A stretch of DNA of 24,570 nucleotides from Gemmatimonadales bacterium (GCA_041615815.1 JBFJCP010000044.1:1-24570); one strand, 5' to 3'. Shown: positions 680-23,491, counted from the first letter of the stretch. Program-made: numbers and translations. Notes: a model not told the origin generated them from the letters alone.

Positions 680-1954
680 CTACTGCGCCTGCAGAATCAC
701 CCGAACCCCTGATTGTACGGTCGAGTCGGCGCTGCGGAGCGCCCGGATATCGTCGTAGTCGGCGTACGCATGGCCGCCCGGGGTATTGTTGGCATCCGAG
801 AGAATCGCAATCCCCACGGCTTCCTTGGATGGAAGGCCACCAAAGGTGTCTCGGTAGGCCTGCGTGATGTCGAACACATGGGTGCGCCACTCACCCAAAC
901 CGGCCTTGCCGCTGTCCGCCACCACCATCCAGGGCTTGCCGAGCCCACTCCGCTGCATGGCCGCGCCCACGGGCAGAGTGGAGCTCCACACATACTTCAC
1001 CGACTCCGGTACCAGACCCAGGATCCGACGGTACACGAAGTAGATACCGGCTGCACTATCGACTTTGTCGTGCCGTCGCTCATCGGCACCTTCCGGAATC
1101 TCGTGGACCCGCCAGCGGAACGAGACATAGGGGAATTCCTGGAGGTTCCACTTCACGTCTTTCGCGATGATTACGGACTGTCCGGTATCCCGGGCCGCCA
1201 GGTACTTGTTGTCACCTTCCTGATGCACGCGGTAGGGCTTGTGTTTGTCGTCGTCCTTGCCTTTCCACTGCCAACCCACCGGGAGTTCGTCCACGGTGCC
1301 TTCCTCGAAATCCTCCAAGACGACGAAGGGAGCGTCGCTGACTTGCGCCACCACGTAGGGAAAGGAGTATTTGTCCAGCATGCGCTTGGCGTCGCGGCCG
1401 TACCGCGCCGTGATTCGCTCGTTACCCGTGTGCAGGTCACGGATCTTCCACTGGCCGTCCGCCGTCTTGGCCATGTACAACGTGAGACCGTACGTCTCGC
1501 TACCAGCCCTCACGGAGCACTCGATGGTCGCTCGATCGGCCTGCTCGTCAGCGGTCGTGACACGCATCGTCGGTACCTTCCCGACTTCAGCGAGGCCTGA
1601 CACGATCTCGTTCTTGATGGCAATCTCGAGTGCGCTGGCCAAGCGCTCGCGCTCGTAGGGGCGGACCGGCGCGCCGGCGCTGCGGAGGACTTCAGCCGCG
1701 AGATGGTCTGCATCGAATGCGTCTTGGACCAGCGCGAGAAACTGTGCGGTGAACTCGCCCTCGCCAATGGCCGCTCGCCGCTCGAGCAGGTCACGCCACT
1801 GGTCGTAGTACCACTCGACGGCCGTTCGTGCATCGGCGGAATAGGTGTGCGGTGCGTCTCCGGGGCTCCGATCTCCAGGCACGAAGGCCAGGACAAATGT
1901 GGCCAAGGAGAGATACCCGAGTTTCTTGAGAGCGGTCATCGTGTTTCGTCCCAT
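680..1954 (-). CDS. Exported MlaC/Ttg2D-like lipid-binding domain fused to DUF3047
   Basis: ATG at 1954 (ATG at 1939 also possible) followed by a signal-like N-terminus. The N-half ends 'LYMAKTADGQWKIRDLHTGNERITARYGRD', matching the MlaC C-terminal W(K)xxD pattern. The C-half has the DUF3047 motifs 'PYVSFRWRV', 'GADER', 'DSAAGIY', 'KYVWSS', 'GEW' and 'ILSDANNT'. Confidence 0.78.
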   Translation of the reverse strand: MGRNTMTALKKLGYLSLATFVLAFVPGDRSPGDAPHTYSADARTAVEWYYDQWRDLLERRAAIGEGEFTAQFLALVQDAFDADHLAAEVLRSAGAPVRPYERERLASALEIAIKNEIVSGLAEVGKVPTMRVTTADEQADRATIECSVRAGSETYGLTLYMAKTADGQWKIRDLHTGNERITARYGRDAKRMLDKYSFPYVVAQVSDAPFVVLEDFEEGTVDELPVGWQWKGKDDDKHKPYRVHQEGDNKYLAARDTGQSVIIAKDVKWNLQEFPYVSFRWRVHEIPEGADERRHDKVDSAAGIYFVYRRILGLVPESVKYVWSSTLPVGAAMQRSGLGKPWMVVADSGKAGLGEWRTHVFDITQAYRDTFGGLPSKEAVGIAILSDANNTPGGHAYADYDDIRALRSADSTVQSGVRVILQAQ

Positions 1955-2267
1955 AGGGTTCCGCCTCTGGTAGGGCCGGTGCACCGACCCGCCTGCACAA
2001 GATACCCGTTCGACGGCTGCGAGGGTCCGGCACCCCCAGTCGGCTGTCGCAGCGGTGGCCGTATGAGCGGGTCGGCACACGGACAGCTGCGACGCCAGGA
2101 TAACTCAGAGCGGCCATGGCTGAAAAGGGTGGTCCTCCCCTCGAGGGTGTCCAGGGCGGTAGGACGGAGCCGGAGGTGCTTCGCATCACGCCACCATGCC
2201 CCGATTGTGGTGGTCGACGTATTACCTCTGAGGCGTTGCCACGCTGGAGGATCGCCGGTGCTCTTGC

Positions 2268-4184
2268 CTACGCGGCAGACTCCGGTGATGCAAAGAGACC
2301 GAGGTTGAGATGGTGGGACAGCTGGCTCAGCGCCGCGAACCCGCGTACGCTCGCACCCCGCTCATCCACCCGAGGCGAGAACGCGACGATGCCCATTTGG
2401 CCGGGGACGACCGTGACGATGGCTCCCGAAATGCCGCTCTTCCCAGGGAGTCCCACGTCAAAGGCAAACTGTCCCGAGGCGTCGTGCATCCCGCACGTGT
2501 ACATGACCGTGAGCACCCGCTGGACAACATCGGAATCCAGCAGTCGTTGGCGGGTGAGCGGGTGACGTCCACCTGCGGCAAGCAGCGCGCCCATCGCGGC
2601 GAGTTGGGTGGCCTTCACCCGCAGCGCGCACTGCCTGAGATAGAGATCCAGTGCCTCATCCACCCGCTCGATGATCCCGAAATTGCGCAGCAAGTAGGTG
2701 ATGGCTCGGTTGCGTGCCCCGAACCGATGCTCCGACACGTAAACGGTCTCGTCGAGCGGAAGCTCGCTCACGCCCGCCATGGCGGCGAAGGCCTGGGCGA
2801 GGCGCTTCCACCGGTCCTCGGACGTTCGGCCGGGCTGGAGTGAAGCGATCGTGATGGCGCCCGCGTTGCTCAAGGGATTGTGCGGACGTCGTGTGGCCGG
2901 ATCGAACTCAATCGCATTGTACGGGTTGCCACTGGGTTCCACACCAACTTTGGTATGGATTCCGTGCTCCCCGTGCTCGGCAAGCGCCAACGCGTAGCCG
3001 AAGGGGTTGGCGGCGGCTTGAATGGTGAACGCCTCCTCTGCATTCCCCACCGTCGCGACCTCCCCTGCCACCGTCACGGCCGCGAGGGCGAAGCGCTCCG
3101 GATCGGCAGCGGCCAGCTCCGGGATGTAGCTGGCAACGGCACCTCCCGAGCCGTGTCCGGTTGCCGTGCGGACCGTGTCGAGTGCGTTCTTCACTCGCGC
3201 GATGGAGATGGGTGGGGCTGCGGCCGGTGTGGGTGCCGTGGGATCGAACAGATGGAGCGACCGTCGGGTCGCGGTCTCTCGCAACGCCGCCATGCCGCGG
3301 ACGCTGTTGCCCTTCTCGTCCAGTCGTGGCGAGTACACGGCGAGGCCGAGCCGGCCGGGTACCACCGCGAGGATCGCGCCCGAGACGCCACTCTTGGCCG
3401 GCACGCCCACTTCCACCGCAAACTGTCCCGTTCCGTCGTACATCCCGCATGTGGAGAGGATGGCGAGCACATCGCGCACGACCTCGCGGGTGACGACGCG
3501 TTCCCCGGTCACCGGGTCTCTGCCGGCGGCCGCCAAGGTCCCCGCCATCCTGGCCAGGTCGCAGCAGGTGACCGCGGCGGAGCAGGCGCGGAAATAGAGG
3601 TCGACCGCGTCCTCCACCGGCTCGTCCAACATGCCGAGGTGGTGCATGAGGTGGGCGATGGCGCGGTTGCGGTCGCCGGTGGCCGCTTCCGATCGGTACA
3701 CCGACTCGTCGATGGCAAGATTGCGGCCCGCCCACCGGCCCAACGTCAAAAGCAGGTTGGCCTGTGCGGAGGCCGGCTGTTCCTCACAGAGAAGGCTCGC
3801 GACCACGATGGCGCCGGCGTTGATCATGGGATTGTGGGGCCGGTTGGTCCCGGACTCGACACGGACTACGGAGTTGAACGCATCGCCGCTCGGCTCGACG
3901 CCCACGCGACGGTGCACTGCAGTCCTCCCGAACCGCTCCAGGGCGGTAGCATACAGGAATGGCTTGCACACCGACTGGATGGTGAACGCGTGCGCCGCGT
4001 CACCCACCGCGGTCTCGTCTCCGGAAACCGAGCACACGGCGATGGCAAAGTGGTCCGGATCGGCCGTGGCCAGCTCGGGAATGTAGGTGGCCACGGCCCC
4101 ATCCCGCAGCGGGGTGTAGCGTTCGAGCAGCTCCTCGAGGAGTGCCTGGAGCTCACTCGGGCTGTCAATGGCGGGTGCGCGCAA
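2268..4184 (-). CDS. glsA: Glutaminase A family protein with two tandem glutaminase domains (second lacks catalytic residues)
   Basis: Two copies of G.VA.YIPELA, FTIQ, VGVEPSG, HNPxxNAGA, CGMxD and KSG(V/I)SG, joined by a Pro/Ala linker (DPTAPTPAAAPP, about 3205-3245). The TTG start at 4184 is uncertain. Confidence 0.92.
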   Translation of the reverse strand: MRAPAIDSPSELQALLEELLERYTPLRDGAVATYIPELATADPDHFAIAVCSVSGDETAVGDAAHAFTIQSVCKPFLYATALERFGRTAVHRRVGVEPSGDAFNSVVRVESGTNRPHNPMINAGAIVVASLLCEEQPASAQANLLLTLGRWAGRNLAIDESVYRSEAATGDRNRAIAHLMHHLGMLDEPVEDAVDLYFRACSAAVTCCDLARMAGTLAAAGRDPVTGERVVTREVVRDVLAILSTCGMYDGTGQFAVEVGVPAKSGVSGAILAVVPGRLGLAVYSPRLDEKGNSVRGMAALRETATRRSLHLFDPTAPTPAAAPPISIARVKNALDTVRTATGHGSGGAVASYIPELAAADPERFALAAVTVAGEVATVGNAEEAFTIQAAANPFGYALALAEHGEHGIHTKVGVEPSGNPYNAIEFDPATRRPHNPLSNAGAITIASLQPGRTSEDRWKRLAQAFAAMAGVSELPLDETVYVSEHRFGARNRAITYLLRNFGIIERVDEALDLYLRQCALRVKATQLAAMGALLAAGGRHPLTRQRLLDSDVVQRVLTVMYTCGMHDASGQFAFDVGLPGKSGISGAIVTVVPGQMGIVAFSPRVDERGASVRGFAALSQLSHHLNLGLFASPESAA

Positions 4185-4548
4185 GGGTCCCTGGGAGGCG
4201 TTCCTTTAGAGGATGGAGGGCCGCACGGCAGAACCGAAGCGGATCGGGAGGCTGAGGGGCAGCGAAGGTCGTAACTGCGCGGCAGCCAGGCCCTCTCTGC
4301 GCGCGGTCGCCATCGTGACACGCGCTCGGGAGTAGGAGCTGGCGCTTCGCCTCTAGCGCCAGACCGTGGCTACCGTAAGGGACGCCGAACCGCCCAAACC
4401 TCACTCTGGCCCGAGCCCGACTCGAGGTCTCCCCGCAGGTGAAGTTGCCAGACGCGCGCCGCCGCCTTCCCGCCCGTCTCCCTCAAGGAACCAGAGGCCG
4501 AGCCCGCTGGGGGGCGGTTGGGGACGGCGCTCGGCGAAAACGAAGGCG

Positions 4549-6162
4549 TTAGCCGTCCACGAACTCCTTGGCTTCGGTAGCGCCGAGGCGCTCGGTGTTC
4601 TGATCGTCGATCATGGCCAGCAGTTGCTCATAGTGCCGCTTTGCCCGCTCCACATCTCCAGTCTGTCGTGCCGCTCGTGCCGCGCCTAGCAGGGAGTGGT
4701 AGCGCTTGGGCCAGATCTCGAGCGAGGCTGTGTAGGCCTCCAATGCCTCGGCCGGCCGCTCGAGGCGCAGCAATAGATCGCCCAGGGCCTCGTATGGCGG
4801 ATACAGCGCGCCGGGCGTGACGGGGTGCTTATCGACGGACGCCTCTATTGTCGCCGCCTCTTGCATGCGTGCCACTGCGGCATCGACCTCCCCTTCCGCG
4901 TGCGCAATCCAGCCTGCGAGCACCAGTCGATCCGTTTCGATGTAGCGAGCGAAGGCCTGTTCGCCTGCCTGTTCAGCCTCGTCGCGCAGGGTCTTCATGC
5001 GCGCCTCGGCCATGCGTGCAGCATGCACGTCGCCGTGGTGGGCCGCTCCCAATCCCTTGGCGAACCACGTAATCGCTTCAGGCCACCAGAACCGGTCCCA
5101 CGGCAGATACTCGTGTTTCCTCACCGGCAGTGCCGCGGCTTCGTCCCACGCACGTCGTTCCACAGCATACCGCGCGGGCAGGGCGGCCAGATGGAAGGCG
5201 CTGATGAAGGTGCCTTGATGCGGAGAGCGTGGCAGGGTCTCATGCATGACGTCGGCGACCTTTTGGTCTGCGCCCTGCTGCAAGTACGCGTACGCCAGAT
5301 AGTCCATGGCGTGGGAGTAGTGGTGCGAGATGGCGTCGCCCGCTGGGAATCGCAGCGCCGCATCCGCCGATTTGCGGTTCCACTCGATCACGTCGGGCCA
5401 CGCGCCCAGCCGCACGAAGATGTGGGTGGGCATGTGTAGAGCGTGAGGGACGCTTGGCGCGATATCGTCATAGCTCCGGACGATATCGAGCGACTCGTCT
5501 GCCCGGCCTTGCACGTCGTTGGCGTGGATGGTGTAATGGATGGAGCCGGGATGGGTCGGTTGACGATCGTGAATGCGCTGTAACACCTCGGCGGCACGCG
5601 CCTGATGAAGCATCCGGTTCTCCGATATCGGTGCTACGGCGAGCTGCGAGAGCGCGTAGAGTGCTGCCGTTTCGATGTCGTCCTCGTGTGTGGCAAACGC
5701 ACCTGCCATTGCCGCTGCCCAGCGGTGGATCCGAGTCCACCATTCGGCGCTCTCGGGCTCACGATAGAACGCCGCAGCTGCCTCGACGAGTGCGCGCTCC
5801 CGATCGGTTACCGGCTCGAGTTCCATCGCACGCTTTACGGCAGCGGCCCCCCGCTGGAGATCGCTCCGCGACGGGCGGCTGGGCCACAACGGCTGAAAGA
5901 GTGTCATCGCGATTCCCCAGTGGGCCATGGCGCACGCGGGTGCTCGCGCTGCGATCTGCTCGAAGGCGGCCTGGGCCTCTACGTACATCATGTGATGCAA
6001 GAGGGCCACCGCACGGTCGAAGTCGGCCCGGACCTCCGGAGCGCAGGACACGCCGAACTTCACGGTTCCGATATCGTCATGGCCTTCATGATGCTCTTGA
6101 GCGAGGATGGTCGCGGGAGCGAGGATAATGAGAACGAGCCAGACAGCGATGGGCGTGCGCAT
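4549..6162 (-). CDS. Secreted TPR-repeat protein with His-rich conserved motifs
   Basis: ATG at 6162; signal peptide MRTPIAVWLVLIILAPATILA-Q; motifs 'GTVKFGVSC', 'CAMAHWGIAM', 'HPGSIHYTIH', 'PHALHMPTHIF'; C-terminal TPR helices. Confidence 0.8.
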   Translation of the reverse strand: MRTPIAVWLVLIILAPATILAQEHHEGHDDIGTVKFGVSCAPEVRADFDRAVALLHHMMYVEAQAAFEQIAARAPACAMAHWGIAMTLFQPLWPSRPSRSDLQRGAAAVKRAMELEPVTDRERALVEAAAAFYREPESAEWWTRIHRWAAAMAGAFATHEDDIETAALYALSQLAVAPISENRMLHQARAAEVLQRIHDRQPTHPGSIHYTIHANDVQGRADESLDIVRSYDDIAPSVPHALHMPTHIFVRLGAWPDVIEWNRKSADAALRFPAGDAISHHYSHAMDYLAYAYLQQGADQKVADVMHETLPRSPHQGTFISAFHLAALPARYAVERRAWDEAAALPVRKHEYLPWDRFWWPEAITWFAKGLGAAHHGDVHAARMAEARMKTLRDEAEQAGEQAFARYIETDRLVLAGWIAHAEGEVDAAVARMQEAATIEASVDKHPVTPGALYPPYEALGDLLLRLERPAEALEAYTASLEIWPKRYHSLLGAARAARQTGDVERAKRHYEQLLAMIDDQNTERLGATEAKEFVDG

Positions 6163-6302: not shown

Positions 6303-7886
6303 ATGACCACACCTATCAGCCCCGAGTTCCTGACCCTCCAGGAGTACCTGGCGGGGCGCTACTCCATCGAGGCCGAACTGGGTCGTGGCGGCATGGGGAT
6401 CGTGCTGCTGGCGCGGGACGTGGCGCTCGACCGGCTGGTGGCCATCAAGCTCCTCCCGCCGGCCCTGGCCGCCAACGCCGAGTATCGAGCGCGTTTTCTG
6501 CGGGAGGCGCGCACCGCCGCAGGCCTGTCCCATCCCAACATCGTGCCGATTCACACGGTCGAGGAACACGACGAGCTGGTGTTCTTCGTAATGGGTTACG
6601 TGGACGGGGAGACCCTACGCGAGCGGGTGGAGCGCGGGGGACCCCTGACGCGGCTGGCCATGAAGCTGATGCAAGAGGTCGCGTGGGCCCTCGCCTACGC
6701 GCATCAACGTGGCGTCATCCATCGCGATATCAAGCCCGACAATATCATGATCGAGCAGGGCACCGATCGGGCGATGGTCACGGACTTCGGCATCGCGCTC
6801 GGCCGTCGCGACACCGAGCGGGGCCACGGAGAGGTGATCGGGACCGCGCGCTACATGAGCCCCGAGCAGGCGTGTGGAGAACCGGTGGATGCCAGGAGCG
6901 ATCTTTACTCACTGGGTGCCACCGTCTTCTACGCGCTGACCGGGCGGGCTCCCGTCGAGGGAAAGAACCTGCCCGCCATTCTGGTCAAGCAGGCTACGCA
7001 GCCGGTGCCGGCCATTCGCACCGTTCGGCCCGAGGTCCCCGCCAAGCTCGCGCAGGTCGTGGATCGCTGCCTCGCCATCGCGCCGGCAGATCGCTGGCAG
7101 ACGGGGGACGAGGTGGCACGTATGGCGGGCGAGGCACGCGGCCGGGAGCTGCGGGCACCGCCCGTCGTCCGGAGCTTCGTGCGGAACGCGCAGGTGACCA
7201 CGATGGTGATCATCGCGGTGGTCGTTGCGGGGCAGGGGATCACGATCAACGAAGCGGGTGTCGAGATCATCAACCTCGGCCCCGGGTTGATCGGCACGAT
7301 CCTCATCATTCAACTCGTGGCGACGGCCCGCCGCCTGTTACGCGAGGGCTACGCGTTCGCCGATATCCGGCAGGCGCTCCTGGCCGAGGCGCGGCTGCAG
7401 GAGGAAGAGGCCGACGAGCTCCAGCAGCGCCGGTGGCTCAGGTGGCTCAACAGCCGGTGGCATCGCATGTGGGCGGGCAAATTCGGTCGCTGGTTTTTCC
7501 GTGTGGCGGGATGGAAACTCGCCAAGCCAACACGTCACGCGCTTCCCTCGGCGGACGCCACCGAGTTCGTCCTGGGCCGGTCGACCCTTGCCGCGTACGA
7601 GGCCCTCTCGGACGAGGTGCGGCGCGAGGCCCGGGAAGTCCCCGACGTGGTCGAGCGTCTCGAGGACCGAGCCGAACGCCTGCGCGCAAGAGGCGAGACG
7701 GGCGAACCGCTAAACGAGACGATGGCGGCGCTCGAGAACCTGCGGCTCGCCATGCTCAAGCTGCAGGCCGGCATGGCATCGGTGAATGACCTGACCTTCC
7801 AGCTCGAGCGGGCCAAGGCGATTGGCGAAGCGGTGGACCGCCGGCTCGCGGCGCTCCGGGAAGTGGAGGAGATCGCACCGGGGTAG
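6303..7886 (+). CDS. Hanks-type Ser/Thr protein kinase with two TM helices and a C-terminal coiled-coil
   Basis: GRGGMG, VAIK, HRDIKPDN, DFG, GTARYMSPEQ and DLYSLG are all intact. Two hydrophobic segments follow the kinase domain, then a helical tail. Confidence 0.93.
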   Translation: MTTPISPEFLTLQEYLAGRYSIEAELGRGGMGIVLLARDVALDRLVAIKLLPPALAANAEYRARFLREARTAAGLSHPNIVPIHTVEEHDELVFFVMGYVDGETLRERVERGGPLTRLAMKLMQEVAWALAYAHQRGVIHRDIKPDNIMIEQGTDRAMVTDFGIALGRRDTERGHGEVIGTARYMSPEQACGEPVDARSDLYSLGATVFYALTGRAPVEGKNLPAILVKQATQPVPAIRTVRPEVPAKLAQVVDRCLAIAPADRWQTGDEVARMAGEARGRELRAPPVVRSFVRNAQVTTMVIIAVVVAGQGITINEAGVEIINLGPGLIGTILIIQLVATARRLLREGYAFADIRQALLAEARLQEEEADELQQRRWLRWLNSRWHRMWAGKFGRWFFRVAGWKLAKPTRHALPSADATEFVLGRSTLAAYEALSDEVRREAREVPDVVERLEDRAERLRARGETGEPLNETMAALENLRLAMLKLQAGMASVNDLTFQLERAKAIGEAVDRRLAALREVEEIAPG

Positions 7887-16829: not shown

Positions 16830-17090
16830 GAGACACCCCCAGACGGCCGTAGTCACGTATGCTCGGCGTGCTTGCGCCAGAGGAGCGCCGGCCGCGGCAC
16901 GGGGGGATGTCGTGACGGTGGATCCACCAGCGGGATCGCCGATCGGAACCGTTGACAACTTCAATAAGACGCGAGAGGCTTACTGTTGCCTTACCGAACA
17001 GATCGGCGGTGGCCAGAACTTCGCAGTCTTTCTACCGGGTCTCGAATTCCCAAAGGACCTCCCCGTCTTGAAGGCGCTCCCGGCGATCCC

Positions 17091-17471
17091 ATCTTTGATT
17101 CCCCGCGATCACCGGATCCCAGAGATTCATCTTGCGGAGCAAGGCCTGAAACCGGGGATGCTGGCGTAGGTCCTGAGGCACGCGCGGTTCACTCCTCATC
17201 AGCCAGGGAAGCCACACATGTGGTGGGTCGTATTCGAGCCAGCGCAGCGCCGTGTCGAAATCGCCAAGCAGAATGTAGATCCGCCCCAGCGGCAATGCGG
17301 ACTCGCAGCAGGGGGCTCCGCCTCCAATGCGGCGACGATGGCGAGCGCATCATCGGTGCGCCCGGCACCAGCGTAGGCAGCAATCAAGAATCCCACGAGT
17401 CGCGGTGCGGTGGCGGCAGCCGACTCCGGACTCAGCGCCACCTCGATCTCGCTCGCGATGGCCCCGTGCGA
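17091..17471 (-). pseudogene. Degenerate, internally deleted duplicate of the 3' end of the 18174-20525 kinase gene
   Basis: 17091-17423 aligns to 18173-18506 (about 92-93% by my manual count) and 17424-17471 aligns to 19170-19216. There is a 1-nt deletion near 17303, a 1-nt insertion near 17462, a TGA->AGA change at the stop, and no start or kinase domain. Confidence 0.92.
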
Positions 17472-18173: not shown

Positions 18174-20525
18174 TCATTGATTTACCGCGATCATCGGATC
18201 CCAAAGATTCATTTTGCGGAGCAAAGCCTGAAACCGGGGATGCTGGCGTAGCTCCGGAGGCACGCGCGGTTCACTCCTCATCAGCCAGGGAAGCCACACA
18301 TGTGGTGGGTCGTATTCGAGCCAGCGCAGCGCCGTGTCGAAATCGCCAAGCAAGATGTAGATCCGCGCCAGCGTCAATGCGGACATCGCGGTGGGGGGCG
18401 CCGCTTCCAATGCGGCGACGATGGCGAGCGCATCATCGGGGCGCCCGGCACCGGCGTAGGCGGCAGCCAAGAATCCCACGAGTCGCGGTGCGGCGGCGGC
18501 AGCCGATTCAAATGCCGTGATGGCATCCTCCCACTGTCCCGCCAACTCGTAGGTGGTCCCGAGCGCCAGCGCGCCAACCGGTGCGCCGGGCTGCAGTGTT
18601 TTGGCCTTCTCCGCAGCGGCGATCCCGTCGTCCAAGCGGCCCGCCTGCGCGTATAGTGGACCGAGCCAGGCCGTGTGCAGTGGAGTGAACGGGTCGAGGT
18701 CCCGGGCCCGTTCGTGCTCCTCAATCGCTTGGTCCAGGCGGTCGAAGAGCGCAAGGTACCATGCGTAGTGATAGTGGTTCATGGGCAGGCTTGGGTTCAA
18801 TGCGTTGGCACGTTGGAATGCCTGCTCCGCTCCCTCCCAATCGTGTTCGTAGTAGGTCTTGACCGCGGCGAGTCCGGCCCATCCGTCTGCGAGGCTGGGG
18901 TCGAGCTTGACCGCACGCTCGGCAGCGGCCGTGGCACGCGCACGAGCTTCGGGTGTGGGGTTGAAGCTGTGGCCGATGGTGATGTAACCGTATGCCAAGC
19001 CTGCCCACGCGAGGGCATCCACGGGATTGCGGTCCACGGCGTCGTGGAGATGCCGGAGACCCTCGGCGACGTCCTCGGGTGTGGCGCGATTCAGGTGGTA
19101 CATGCCTTTGAGGTATGCCTCGTAGACACCGGGATCCACCGTCGTCGCGCGCTCCAAGCGCAATTCCGCCTCCGGACTCAGCGCCACCTCGATCTCGCTC
19201 GCGATGGCCCGTGCGATACCCCGGTAGAGCGCCACCACGTTGGGGAGATTGCCATCGTATGCGCCCTGCCACATGGGCAGATTGGAACCCGGGTCGATGA
19301 GCCGTGTTTCGATCTCGACGCTGTCACGATCGCGGAACACACCTCCTTCGAGCACCGCATCAACATCGAGCTCGCGCGCGATCTCCTGGATCGGCTTGTC
19401 GACGTTTCGATACTGCATGACGGAACCTCGCGCGATCACGGTGACGCCGGTTTGCGCCAACTCCGAGATCAGTGCCTCGTGGACGCCGTCGACGAAGTAC
19501 TCCTGGGCCGTATCGCCGGAAAGGTTGGTCAGCGGCAAGACGGCCAACGCCTGGACCCGTGGCGTCTCCATCACGCCGGCCAGCCACCACGTTACGACGG
19601 CCACGACCACCAACGCGGCTCCCACCAGTGCATGGCGCCGGAGACGAGGCGACCGTACGCGTGCCACGACCGTTTCGCTGGTGAGCGCCTTGGCAAACTC
19701 GGACGCGCTGGTGAAGCGGTCATCCGGGTCCTTTGCCAACGCCCGTGCAACCGCTCGCTCGACGAACAGCGGAATATTCGGATCGATCGTTCGGAGGCTC
19801 GGCACGGTTGAGGCCATGTGTTTGGCCAACAGGGCCATCGGTGTGGCCCCGTGGAACGGTGTTCGGCCGCCGACCATCTCGTAGACCACGCAGCCCAGCG
19901 CGTATACGTCCGTACGCGCATCGACCGTCTCCAAGCCGCCCGCCTGTTCCGGGCTCATGTAGGCCGGCGTGCCGAGCGCCATGCCGGTTCCCGTGAGACG
20001 CTCACCGCCGGCTGCCTCCACCGCGCGCGCAATCCCGAAGTCCGCGACCACGGCTTGGTCACCGGTCAACAAGATGTTCTCGGGCTTGATATCGCGATGC
20101 ACCACACCACGCTCGTGCGCGTACGTGAGTGCGGACGCAATCTGATCGGCAATCCGAACGGCGTCTGCAATTTCGAGCGCTCCCTCCCGTTCGAGCCGGT
20201 TCCGCAGGGATTCGCCCTCGACGAATGGCATGACGTAGTACATGAACACCGGGCCACCATCGCCCGGTCCCGCGGTCCCGCTGTCGAAAAGCGGCAGGAT
20301 GTGTGGATGGGAGAGCTTGGCCGCGATCTCGATCTCGCGGAGGAAGCGGTCGGGGCCGAGCGTGGCGGCGAGCTCGGGGCGAAGGACCTTGATGGCGACC
20401 TTGCGCCCGTGCTTCACATCCTCGGCCAGGTAGACGGTTGCCATGCCGCCTTCGCCCAGGCGGCGCTCGAGCTCGTAGCGGCCGGCGAGAGCGGTCGAGA
20501 GGCCGGTGGGTAGGGCTTCGGTCAC
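18174..20525 (-). CDS. Ser/Thr kinase - TM - TolB-like N-terminal module - TPR protein
   Basis: GTG at 20525 overlaps the upstream TGA (GTGA). Motifs GEGGMA, VAIK, HRDIKPEN, DFG, GTPAYMSPEQ; a TM helix; 'LAVLPLTNLSGD..QEYFVDG', 'IARELDVDAVLEG'; TPRs; C-terminal 'LRQHPRFQALLRKM'. Confidence 0.94.
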   Translation of the reverse strand: MTEALPTGLSTALAGRYELERRLGEGGMATVYLAEDVKHGRKVAIKVLRPELAATLGPDRFLREIEIAAKLSHPHILPLFDSGTAGPGDGGPVFMYYVMPFVEGESLRNRLEREGALEIADAVRIADQIASALTYAHERGVVHRDIKPENILLTGDQAVVADFGIARAVEAAGGERLTGTGMALGTPAYMSPEQAGGLETVDARTDVYALGCVVYEMVGGRTPFHGATPMALLAKHMASTVPSLRTIDPNIPLFVERAVARALAKDPDDRFTSASEFAKALTSETVVARVRSPRLRRHALVGAALVVVAVVTWWLAGVMETPRVQALAVLPLTNLSGDTAQEYFVDGVHEALISELAQTGVTVIARGSVMQYRNVDKPIQEIARELDVDAVLEGGVFRDRDSVEIETRLIDPGSNLPMWQGAYDGNLPNVVALYRGIARAIASEIEVALSPEAELRLERATTVDPGVYEAYLKGMYHLNRATPEDVAEGLRHLHDAVDRNPVDALAWAGLAYGYITIGHSFNPTPEARARATAAAERAVKLDPSLADGWAGLAAVKTYYEHDWEGAEQAFQRANALNPSLPMNHYHYAWYLALFDRLDQAIEEHERARDLDPFTPLHTAWLGPLYAQAGRLDDGIAAAEKAKTLQPGAPVGALALGTTYELAGQWEDAITAFESAAAAAPRLVGFLAAAYAGAGRPDDALAIVAALEAAPPTAMSALTLARIYILLGDFDTALRWLEYDPPHVWLPWLMRSEPRVPPELRQHPRFQALLRKMNLWDPMIAVNQ

Positions 20526-23491
20526 TGTGGCTCTCCGCCGAGACGCACGAGGCGTTGCTTCACCTCTTCGACTTGCGGCTGAAGTCTTGGGTCGGCGTCC
20601 TGCCAGAGGTCGACGAAGCGCGCGTAGTACCGAGTAGCAGCGTCGCGCTGGCCCAATCGCTCGGCAATCTCTCCACGTCTGAGCGCCGTCGGTGCCTCGT
20701 ACAGCATGGCGTACGCATCGTGGGACACGAGCGACTCGTACCACGGCTGCGCTTCCGTGTCACGCCCCAGGGTCACGAGGATCTCACCGTGGAGGTACCG
20801 CTCGAGCAGGTGAGAGAAAAACGGTCGCCAGAGGTGGAGATCGGAGTCCGAGCCCCGCCGTCGGTATGGGATCTGCTCGAGCAGCGCCAGCGCATCCGCA
20901 TGTCTGGCTTCCCGCCACAGAATGTGGGAACGAACGGCATCACCGAGGTCACGGGCAATGAAGGTCCACGTCCCTCCGTCGCTCTCACCGAGGCGCTCCA
21001 CTGAGTCTGCATATTGGCGTGCCGCACGGTGTTCACCGAGGCGCGCGTTGACCACTCCCAGCAGGTATGCCCGGAGGTGGGGGTGGAGCGCATACGCATG
21101 ACCCCTCGTTACGGCCGGCGTGGCCGAGGCGTCCCATCGCTCCAGATCGATCCGCACCTGGGCGAGCTCGGAATCCGGGACTTCGATGAACGGCAGCGTG
21201 GCGAGCATGGCACGATGTTCCACGGTTCCTGACATGTCGAGCGGTTCCGCTTTGCGAAGCTCCTCGAGCGCCGCTCGTCCCTGGCCGCGGGCCATGGCGA
21301 GCGCAGCCACGAGGCCATGACCGCGCGCCCGTGTAGGCGGCGCGCGTTGGGGCGCCGTCATGAATCCGGCGAGTCGCTCCACCTCACCGAGATCATCCAG
21401 CAGAAAGGCTGTGTGCATCACCGTCGCGGTGAGGTCCGCGTCGCTCGCCCGTTCCAGCTCCACACGCAGCTGGGCGCGAGCAGCTGAATCTCCTTGTAAT
21501 GCCGCGTGGGTTGCTCCGGCCCACAACTCGAACGTGGCGGTCCGATCCAGCCGGCGGAAGAGGGCATCGAACTCCGCATACCGTCGTTCCAGGGCGGCGA
21601 CCTCCATCAGATGCACCAGTGCACGATTGTGGGTCGAGTCCAGCGCCAACACGCGCTCCAATGGCGCCCGCGCCCCGCTGATCGACCAGCCCCAGAGCGG
21701 ACCGTTGATCAGCAAGAGATTCCCAAGCCAGAACCAGCCCTCCACTTCATCGGGATAGCGGGCAACAAGGTCGCGATACAGGCTCACGGACGCGACCACG
21801 TCCCGTTCCAAGGTGACGAAGGCCTCGAGCACCTGCCGGTCGCGCGGAGAGAGGCGGTGCGCGTGCCGGAGGGCCCGTGCCGCGGCGCCGCGCGTGATGG
21901 CAGGCGGTCCGTCCGTGCCCCACCCAGCGAGAGTTGCCAGGCGATAGTTGGCGAGGGCGAACGCCGTGTCCGTCTCGACGGCTCGAGCGAACGCCCACCG
22001 GGCGTCGCTCCATCGTCCCGCGCGAAGCAGGTGCTCGCCATCGAGATACGCTTTGAGCGCATCGAGCGACGGGGACGTGCGGCTGGCGAGACGCGCGAAC
22101 CGCTGCGTCGCGTCGCCGTACCGCTCGGCCAGCAACTCGGCGACGAGGCGGTCCACCAACTCGAACAGCTCGGCAGTGGTTCCTTCGAGGCTCGCTAACG
22201 CCAACGGGGTATCTTGCTCCCTGGTGCTGAACAGTGAACCGCGCAGTTGTAGGCGACCGCCGACCTCGACTACGCTCCCCAGGACGTAAAGCCCGGCCCC
22301 GGCTTGCTCGGCCAGTACGCTCGCTCGTGCCGGATCGACGCGGCCTTCCAGGGGCCGCACCAAGCTCATCACGGCGTGGGGATCGATGCTCCGCAGCTCG
22401 CCGGCACCGTCCAACTTGGTGCTCAAGAGATCCATCATTCCCTCGCCGAGGTAGGCAAGCTCCTCGCTGCCCCGCACCTCGAAGGGGAAGACCGCGACGG
22501 CATTCTCGGCGAGTGGCGCCTCTTCGGCGGCCTGTGATCCAAACACGAACCATGCGACACTCGCACCCAAGACTGTGAGCATCACTGCTCCCAACACGAG
22601 GGAGCGGGATCGCGGCCTTCGACGTGCGGTGTGATCCGGTGGCGATGCCGTGCCGGCCGCCAGCGCGTCTGCAAACGAGCGCGCCGTTGCGAACCGGTCG
22701 GCGGGCACCTTGGCGAGCGCCTTCTCGACAGCTCGTTCGACATTGTCCGGAATCGTTGGCCGCAGGGTCCGCAGCCGAGGCACGGGATCGATCGAATGCC
22801 GGGCGATGACAGCCGCGGTGCTCGGGCCCGTAAAGGGCGGCTGGCCCCCAACCATCTCGTACAGCACACAGGCGAGTCCGTACACGTCGCTTCGCCCATC
22901 GAGATCGCTCTCACCCGTCGCTTGCTCTGGCGACATGTACTCCGGCGTTCCGACCACCAAGCCCGTCTCGGTCAGCCGCTCACCGCCGGCCGACGTGACA
23001 GCCCGGGCGATACCGAAGTCTGCTACTCGCGCATGCCCTGCGGCCAGCAAGATGTTCTCCGGCTTGATGTCCCGATGCACGATGTCGTGCCGGTGTGCAA
23101 AGTCGAGGGCGTCCGCGACCTGGTGGGTGATCTGGAAGGCATCGTCAATGGGAAGGTGCTTCTCGCGATTCAGCCGATCGCGCAGCGTCTCGCCCTCGAC
23201 ATAAGGCATGACATAATAAAGGAAACCGTTGGCGTGGCCCGAATCGAGCAGCGGCAGGATATGGGGATGGTCGAGGCGGGCAGTAATCTCGATTTCGCGG
23301 AGGAAGCGGTCAGAGCCAAGCGCGAGTGCGATCTCGGGTTTCAGGACCTTGATGGCGACTAGGCGATGGTTCTTGAGGTCCTCGGCGAGGTAGACGGTCG
23401 CCATGCCGCCTTCGCCCAGGCGGCGCTCGAGCTTGTAGCGGCCGGCGAGGGCGGTCGTGAGGCGCTCGAGCTGAGACGCTTCGTTCGTCAC
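20522..23491 (-). CDS. Ser/Thr kinase - TM - TolB-like module - TPR protein
   Basis: GTG at 23491 with GGAG RBS; intact kinase motifs; a TM helix; 'VAVFPFEV...YLGEGMMDLL'; TPRs; C-terminal 'YARFVDLWQDADPRLQP'. Confidence 0.94.
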   Translation of the reverse strand: MTNEASQLERLTTALAGRYKLERRLGEGGMATVYLAEDLKNHRLVAIKVLKPEIALALGSDRFLREIEITARLDHPHILPLLDSGHANGFLYYVMPYVEGETLRDRLNREKHLPIDDAFQITHQVADALDFAHRHDIVHRDIKPENILLAAGHARVADFGIARAVTSAGGERLTETGLVVGTPEYMSPEQATGESDLDGRSDVYGLACVLYEMVGGQPPFTGPSTAAVIARHSIDPVPRLRTLRPTIPDNVERAVEKALAKVPADRFATARSFADALAAGTASPPDHTARRRPRSRSLVLGAVMLTVLGASVAWFVFGSQAAEEAPLAENAVAVFPFEVRGSEELAYLGEGMMDLLSTKLDGAGELRSIDPHAVMSLVRPLEGRVDPARASVLAEQAGAGLYVLGSVVEVGGRLQLRGSLFSTREQDTPLALASLEGTTAELFELVDRLVAELLAERYGDATQRFARLASRTSPSLDALKAYLDGEHLLRAGRWSDARWAFARAVETDTAFALANYRLATLAGWGTDGPPAITRGAAARALRHAHRLSPRDRQVLEAFVTLERDVVASVSLYRDLVARYPDEVEGWFWLGNLLLINGPLWGWSISGARAPLERVLALDSTHNRALVHLMEVAALERRYAEFDALFRRLDRTATFELWAGATHAALQGDSAARAQLRVELERASDADLTATVMHTAFLLDDLGEVERLAGFMTAPQRAPPTRARGHGLVAALAMARGQGRAALEELRKAEPLDMSGTVEHRAMLATLPFIEVPDSELAQVRIDLERWDASATPAVTRGHAYALHPHLRAYLLGVVNARLGEHRAARQYADSVERLGESDGGTWTFIARDLGDAVRSHILWREARHADALALLEQIPYRRRGSDSDLHLWRPFFSHLLERYLHGEILVTLGRDTEAQPWYESLVSHDAYAMLYEAPTALRRGEIAERLGQRDAATRYYARFVDLWQDADPRLQPQVEEVKQRLVRLGGEPQ

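Follow-up and report, generated by a model that had tools for sequence, protein, structure and literature searches.

A tandem glutaminase of a Gemmatimonadales bacterium pairs a complete active site with a conserved second domain that lacks the catalytic triad

The window, a stretch of 24,570 nucleotides from a Gemmatimonadales bacterium, encodes on its minus strand (2268..4184) a glutaminase, P0001, in which two catalytic domains are fused, the first with its active site complete and the second without its three catalytic residues and with the residues of the ligand pocket still in place. Comparison of related sequences shows that the second domain is kept by purifying selection, and sequence and predicted structure together lean towards its being a ligand-binding pseudoenzyme that regulates the active twin. 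Whilst the fold, the chemistry and the general logic of such an arrangement are already known, no earlier description of a glutaminase that joins an active domain to a conserved dead one was met with in the literature searched, which was largely open access.

The open frame runs from a TTG start at 4184 to a TAG stop ending at 2268 and encodes 638 amino acids; a Pfam scan finds two PF04960 matches in it, and the two halves, which are 48% identical across 286 columns, are joined by a Pro/Ala-rich linker (3210..3236, about residues 317-325; all features of the gene given here lie on the minus strand). Domain 1 (3237..4163, about residues 8-316) is a complete GlsA domain, scoring 360 bits against TIGR03814, glutaminase A (cut-off 255), and 386 bits against PF04960 (cut-off 27). 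The triad of human glutaminase is S286, K289 and Y466, according to PMC13218152, and PMC4929687 reports that S286A, K289A and Y466A each lower the activity of human KGA, that the substrate analogue DON is contacted by Q285 and E381 at its alpha-amino and by N335 and Y414 at its alpha-carboxyl group, and that N388, Y249 and V484 of the human enzyme are further ligand contacts. In domain 1 the SxxK motif is S71-V-C-K74 (3963..3974, with the codon of S71 at 3972-3974 and that of K74 at 3963-3965), the catalytic Tyr249 (3438..3440) aligns with human Y466, the pocket residues Q70, N122, E166, N173 and Y197 correspond to human Q285, N335, E381, N388 and Y414, V267 is present, and the YIP lid (Y34-I-P) is intact. 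The sequence-only reading had assigned an SxxK motif and an active-site Tyr to this domain, and the codons of S71, K74 and Y249 are indeed where it put them; the ranges that it gave for the motifs of the two domains cover SVCK and AAAN, whereas the Gln it included in each lies one codon further upstream. With these motifs intact, domain 1 almost certainly hydrolyses glutamine to glutamate and ammonia.

Domain 2 (2283..3209, about residues 326-634) reaches 312 bits against TIGR03814 (cut-off 255) and on its sequence is a member of the glutaminase fold family that is not classed as an active glutaminase. An AxxN motif (3006..3017, with A390 at 3015-3017 and N393 at 3006-3008) stands in place of SxxK and His567 (2484..2486) in place of the catalytic Tyr, and A390, N393 and H567 align with human S286, K289 and Y466, in agreement with the earlier claim that the triad had been replaced at these codons. 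The pocket residues Q389, N440, E485, N492 and Y515 are kept, as is Y353. Considering what each single mutation does to the human enzyme, domain 2 is very likely incapable of hydrolysing glutamine. The sequence-only reading had also listed NAGA, E..Y.SE, RNRA, LY..QC and KSGISG as retained; all five are present, but E..Y.SE is not a family motif, its final Glu (E485) alone being invariant and the Ser before it kept in 15% of type-A second domains (defined below). Furthermore the suggestion that only three changes had occurred in an otherwise conserved domain does not hold, as about 20 family-conserved positions are relaxed or changed, and domain 2 has acquired conserved positions of its own, namely N420, P421 and the R530-equivalent. 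Of these Asn420 (2925..2927), at the start of the equivalent of the activation loop, is found in 98% of type-A second domains against about 1% or less of single-domain enzymes.

An assembly artefact was considered and ruled out, as the protein cluster comprises five members on 20 contigs and a contig from run X1, which may be the source sample, covers the whole gene with two differences. At 3206 and 3918 all four runs compared differ from the window, the former altering residue 327; at these places the window genome has either an allele of its own or an error of assembly. This genome is 95.7% complete and the tandem gene is the sole glutaminase gene found in it. The neighbouring genes, for a TPR protein upstream and for an MlaC-like domain fused to DUF3047 downstream (680-1954, minus strand), are hundreds of bases off and without evident link to it. 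No sigma-70 promoter or terminator was matched at 1900-4700, no sigma-54-like site was found upstream of the gene (two matches in the window against 1.9 expected), Rfam gave no match in the window or in nine loci, and the 216 nt upstream of the gene fold no better than shuffled sequences (z -0.63). Elsewhere in the window there are three Ser/Thr kinase genes (6303-7886, which was Pfam-scanned, 18174-20744 and 20522-23491), two with long C-terminal extensions, and near-identical peptide text, which occurs twice in the ORF list (17032-17450 and 18174-18660), suggests that the 3' end of the kinase-TPR gene (18174-20744) has been partly duplicated at a distance of about 1.2 kb.

The loss of the triad is not peculiar to this gene. 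A family search was surveyed through the best 120 of 7735 matches, which with one exception are between 608 and 690 amino acids in length, and an alignment was made of the window protein and 119 other tandem proteins drawn from them. Among these best 120 of 7735 matches none of the aligned proteins has two complete sites, the Ser-x-x-Lys motif and the catalytic Tyr occur in all 119 full-length first domains, and the catalytic Lys is absent from domain 2 in 110. In those 110 second domains, again from the best 120 of 7735, the Lys position is Asn in 104 and Lys in none, the Ser is replaced by Ala in 86 and by Gly in one and kept in the other 23, and the Tyr position is His in 94, Asn in nine, Tyr in six and Phe in one, so that the double-domain homologues, whose collection had been proposed as a check, bear out the replacements seen in the window. 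The equivalents of Q285, E381 and N388 are retained in all 110, that of Y414 in 109 and that of N335 in 108; 96 of the domains also have the lid Tyr. The 101 tandems among them without Asn at the Tyr position are here called type A and the nine with Asn there type B. As a control, the catalytic Lys is present in 206 of 211 single-domain matches, which were chosen by their likeness to the window protein and are not a random sample, and the five exceptions carry Lys-to-Asn and group among second domains in the tree; the loss of Lys is therefore not a matter of chance.

Some of these sequences merit separate mention. The other ten of the best 120 of 7735 matches (type C) are reciprocal, in that domain 2 carries a triad and domain 1, with its triad present, has Arg for E381; the lid Tyr is absent from both domains. 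Cyanobacterial sequences (L004, L058, Myxosarcina) belong to type C as well. Across the members P0062, P0070, P0079, P0093, P0097, P0114, P0116, P0117, P0119, P0120, P0244, L004 and L058 the E381 position of domain 1 is Arg or Lys with Ser-Lys-Tyr intact. It could be speculated that this change either blocks glutamine or fits the site to a substrate that has no alpha-amino group, 2-oxoglutaramate for example. A single-domain glutaminase in a Gordonia record (L081) has His at the catalytic Tyr with SxxK intact. Of the five single-domain exceptions, L106, P0122 and P0159 were rejected as stand-alone dead domains, since short contigs and a longer member of the cluster make them look like parts of tandem genes; P0125 (316 aa) and P0147 (342 aa) may be stand-alone dead glutaminase domains or fragments. 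Cultured bacteria also carry tandems with the dead second domain, namely Sulfidibacter corallicola, Acanthopleuribacter pedis and Engelhardtia mirabilis, and the database name of these tandem proteins is plain "glutaminase A".

Tandem glutaminases with one dead domain appear to have arisen several times independently. In a FastTree tree of 460 domains, from which the catalytic, E381 and lid columns had been removed, 99 of 100 type-A first domains fall into a single clade (0.91) beside the single glutaminase of G346, a genome of the same genus (58% identical), eight of nine type-B first domains fall elsewhere and each type-C domain forms a clade of its own (1.0); the basal grouping of type-A with type-B second domains is weakly supported (0.19-0.69). 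A further kind, type D, which is absent from the tree, is represented by two tandem genes in one genome, G1132 (L156:2287-4272 and L156:9900-11966), that bracket amtB, PII, glnA and a Band 7 gene; its domain 2 has Ala, Val and Tyr at the triad and keeps all five pocket residues. P0250 has a Lys-to-Val second domain that resembles type D. A profile search added long double glutaminases (P0247-P0380), most of those scanned having ankyrin repeats and two being from the protists Palpitomonas and Rhodelphis. Two full domains are found in 24 long proteins, which include one bacterial type A; both triads are present in two of the 24, one triad in 20 and none in two, and of the 24 triad-defective domains 13 have only 0-2 pocket residues and eight have all five. 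A retained dead domain thus need not keep its pocket, though the domains that have lost it are also more diverged overall, retaining 25-38 of 52 core residues as compared with at least 37. Loss of Lys with retention of the five pocket residues is seen in separate lineages, both in type D and in some of the protist-type proteins.

That the second domain is under selection is indicated by several comparisons. Among 100 type-A proteins from the best 120 of 7735 matches, first domains share on average 55.9% and second domains 53.6% pairwise identity, the domain-2 tree has a length of 33.2 and the domain-1 tree one of 29.1, and 40 of 48 supported splits of the domain-1 tree recur in the domain-2 tree and 39 of 49 in the reverse direction; the two halves within one protein are 35-53% identical. 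A related strain in run X7 differs from the window in domain 2 (residues 326-590) by 13 synonymous and 10 non-synonymous changes (pN/pS 0.28, p = 0.0025), three of the latter 10 coming from a contig of depth 2.8, and none alters a pocket residue or A390, N393 or H567. Domain 1 shows 10 synonymous and five non-synonymous differences, an incomplete list for which no ratio is given. The family-wide recurrence of the same substitutions, a rate near that of domain 1 and a pN/pS below 1 together support the selected pseudoenzyme that the sequence-only reading had proposed, and random decay, which it had named beforehand as the outcome that would count against it, was not seen and is rejected on the fixed substitutions, the largely congruent domain trees and the polymorphism ratio. 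For the pocket in particular the enrichment is borderline, since 28 of the 52 other positions that active domains conserve are likewise held at 95% or higher in domain 2, as against five of five for the pocket (Fisher p = 0.057). The lid of type-A second domains is partly relaxed, with the Tyr in 86% and the Ile in 28%, and the Ser before E381 is found in the 15% given above.

An AlphaFold2 model of the protein, built on the 119-row alignment, has a pLDDT of 95.2 and a pTM of 0.94, and both modelled halves match solved glutaminases (residues 326-633 against 1U60: Z 48.0, rmsd 1.3 A over 307 residues). When the halves were predicted as separate chains they scored 0.80 against 0.00 for the best control, with a contact agreement between runs of at least 94% and a partner pLDDT of at least 91; with the mark used for such scores, 116 of 157 solved complexes pass, as do two of 215 mismatched pairs. 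As similar glutaminase complexes have already been solved, the prediction may possibly be a memory of known dimers. In the model 28 of 33 interface positions of domain 1 map onto interface positions of domain 2, which describes a pseudo-twofold, and on this axis Tyr562 (2499..2501) is predicted to touch Ser244 of domain 1 (3453-3455), both residues aligning with human His461; this predicted contact may again reflect memory of solved dimers. The earlier suggestion of a built-in dimer partner is thus backed by prediction, and it is highly probable that the halves pack across the pseudo-twofold in the manner of the known glutaminase dimer. The helix that follows H567 is modelled as packing on two elements of domain 1, the EPSG loop and the helix that leads to Y249, and a signal could plausibly travel this way.

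The known glutaminases provide a frame for these predictions. Escherichia coli YbaS (1U60), Bacillus subtilis YbgJ (1MKI) and Micrococcus Mglu (3AGD) share the fold of both halves, and domain 1 has the same whole triad and pocket as these enzymes; in contrast to the fused pair described here, the second member of which is without S, K and Y, each of their solved chains has one catalytic domain. A tetramer is common to YbaS, YbgJ and the human enzymes (PMC8130709). Human GLS (KGA/GAC) has the same pocket residues, and the predicted contact between the halves falls at its H461 twofold position. According to PMC13218152 human H461 contacts its own twin at the monomer-monomer interface, and H461L alters phosphate dependence and glutamate inhibition by a mechanism that is called unclear. 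Human GLS is a homo-oligomer of equal sites under phosphate and filament regulation, whereas the chain described here is asymmetric. The closest parallel to domain 2 is the human Y466W protein (7SBM, 7SBN), which, according to PMC8800119, was crystallised with glutamine and served as a reporter of glutamine binding with cooperativity between subunits, so that glutamine is still bound when Tyr466 is substituted. Y466W is however a single engineered change and domain 2 has three natural, fixed substitutions in one half. Lid closure is reported to be critical for high-affinity binding (PMC8800119), and the alanine mutants of PMC4929687 affected substrate binding.

Tandem genes are patchily distributed, being found in 1 of 401 genomes sampled from the window's own phylum, 2 of 321 from its own family, 9 of 401 from the phylum of a planctomycete, 1 of 401 from that of an acidobacterium and 1 of 251 cyanobacterial genomes (the centre genome itself), and in none of 201 genomes of the phylum of G404 or six of that of G403. 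When genomes were scanned with the whole alignment, tandem genes accounted for three of 80 loci and most were single-domain genes, which were used as an outgroup; a pattern scan of metagenomes returned three short loci. ATP-grasp/alpha-E/transglutaminase genes lie next to the type-A gene at all eight other loci that come from whole genomes, and wider cuts around the loci contain CP-ATP-grasp, alpha-E, amidotransferase-transglutaminase and DUF2126 genes. In the planctomycete sample a transglutaminase-fusion or alpha-E gene lies within 1.5 kb of the type-A gene at seven of seven loci, whereas the system is that close at none of 11 single-domain and neither of two type-B loci; no statistic is attached to this link because the planctomycete genomes are kin and not independent. 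The link is repeated in G1779, from the window's own family. A fusion of GATase_4 (class II glutamine amidotransferase) with transglutaminase is present at L148:8650-10515, L149:4941-6788, L150:8628-10520, L152:12166-14751 and L153:3450-6179, and in L148, L149, L150 and L153 it is directly upstream of the tandem glutaminase. Some single-domain glutaminases also adjoin glutamine synthetase (L018, L129, L130, L132).

In the window genome, at 95.7% completeness, the ATP-grasp system gave no tblastn match with four queries and no PF14403 match, so this operon cannot be taken as needed there. Nor was there a match to PII (PF00543), or to an ammonium transporter with the one query used; three glutamine synthetase-like matches were found. 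The Anbu operon, to which the CP-ATP-grasp/alpha-E/transglutaminase system is related, is described as unexplained, and Anbu as up-regulated in Pseudomonas putida under nitrogen limitation, in PMC6376114 and PMC5666114, and the word "glutaminase" is absent from PMC5666114. The type-A tandem glutaminases of the relatives are in or beside this "Anbu-type" operon, whereas the system was not found in the window genome.

The following scheme would be consistent with these observations. Domain 1 would split glutamine to glutamate and ammonia, and domain 2, which selection has kept, would not, but would fold onto domain 1 as the usual dimer partner. An L-amino acid would probably be held in domain 2 through the alpha-amino and alpha-carboxyl groups, its side chain being read by Asn393 and His567. 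Occupancy of this pocket may then be passed through the interface helix (residues 562-575) to two parts of domain 1, the helix that carries Tyr249 and the EPSG loop, a step that is somewhat favoured on the model. Only tentatively can a direction be given to the effect, namely that glutamine switches domain 1 on, such that only abundant glutamine would be split and no futile cycle with glutamine synthetase would arise; inhibition by glutamate would be the next guess. The family pattern, selection, the predicted dimer, the Y466W analogy, the ankyrin control and the gene context count for a regulatory domain 2, and against it count the relaxed lid, the borderline enrichment of the pocket, the greater divergence of the decayed controls, the possible memory in the complex prediction, the missing ATP-grasp operon and unrelated neighbours in the window genome, and the single-domain genes beside glutamine synthetase.

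Domain 2 might instead merely stabilise domain 1, with the pocket persisting for structural reasons and no regulatory ligand. Such a scaffold fits the conservation of the predicted interface, which is 0.73 against 0.64 for the rest of domain 2, together with the tetramer shared by YbaS, YbgJ and the human enzymes, the relaxed lid and the borderline pocket enrichment. It would not call for Asn and His to be fixed at the old catalytic positions in 104 and 94 of 110 second domains (best 120 of 7735 matches), other dead domains persist in 13 of 24 cases despite the loss of the pocket, and type D and some protist-type proteins lose Lys and yet keep all five pocket residues; this explanation is accordingly considered unlikely. 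That domain 2 binds glutamine or glutamate and signals to, or holds substrate or product for, an outside partner (the ATP-grasp ligase, alpha-E or the amidotransferase-transglutaminase) would account for the planctomycete loci and the recurrence in G1779. It is made less likely still by the window genome, in which the system was unmatched, by the kinship of the planctomycete genomes and by the Pfam scan, which finds a kinase or DNA-binding output domain in none of 33 two-domain matches.

The fixation of His and Asn, the Ser kept in 23 of 110 and the new conserved positions would also suit a new enzyme, in which His567 and Asn393, with Ser where it is kept, carry out another reaction on an alpha-amino acid. 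Nevertheless Ala occupies the place of the nucleophile in 86 of 110 second domains (best 120 of 7735 matches), and the spread of Asn, Tyr and Phe at the His position in the same sample sits badly with a single catalytic residue, so that a new activity seems improbable. A recent duplicate in the course of decay, which the patchiness of the gene (1 of 401 genomes of its own phylum) might suggest, is very hard to reconcile with halves that are 35-53% identical, with largely congruent trees and similar rates, and with the excess of synonymous polymorphism (pN/pS 0.28).

The regulatory reading of domain 2 has precedents outside the family. Mammalian hexokinase I and eukaryotic phosphofructokinase each combine an active domain with a catalytically dead regulatory copy, and in both the regulation is proven. 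The logic would be the same, that is duplication, fusion and the use of a former active site as the likely effector site, but their folds are unrelated to glutaminase and the regulation of the protein described here is inferred only. A wider and doubtful proposal is that duplication together with loss of Lys has on several occasions, in protists as well as in bacteria, made a glutamine sensor of the glutaminase fold, and that the type-A enzyme is self-gated, reads nitrogen status and sets the supply of glutamate and ammonia to the ATP-grasp/alpha-E/transglutaminase system; in the window genome, where no PII was found, the dead domain would then be the glutamine gauge.

Behind the name "glutaminase A" is concealed a fixed architecture in which one half is dead. 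Should this half bind glutamine or glutamate and control its twin, these proteins would constitute a new metabolite-sensing module in bacterial nitrogen metabolism, and the link of the type-A genes to the ATP-grasp/alpha-E/transglutaminase operon offers that system a glutamate/glutamine partner. If true, they would also provide a natural asymmetric dimer in which to follow communication across the glutaminase twofold, which is relevant to the human enzyme as a drug target.
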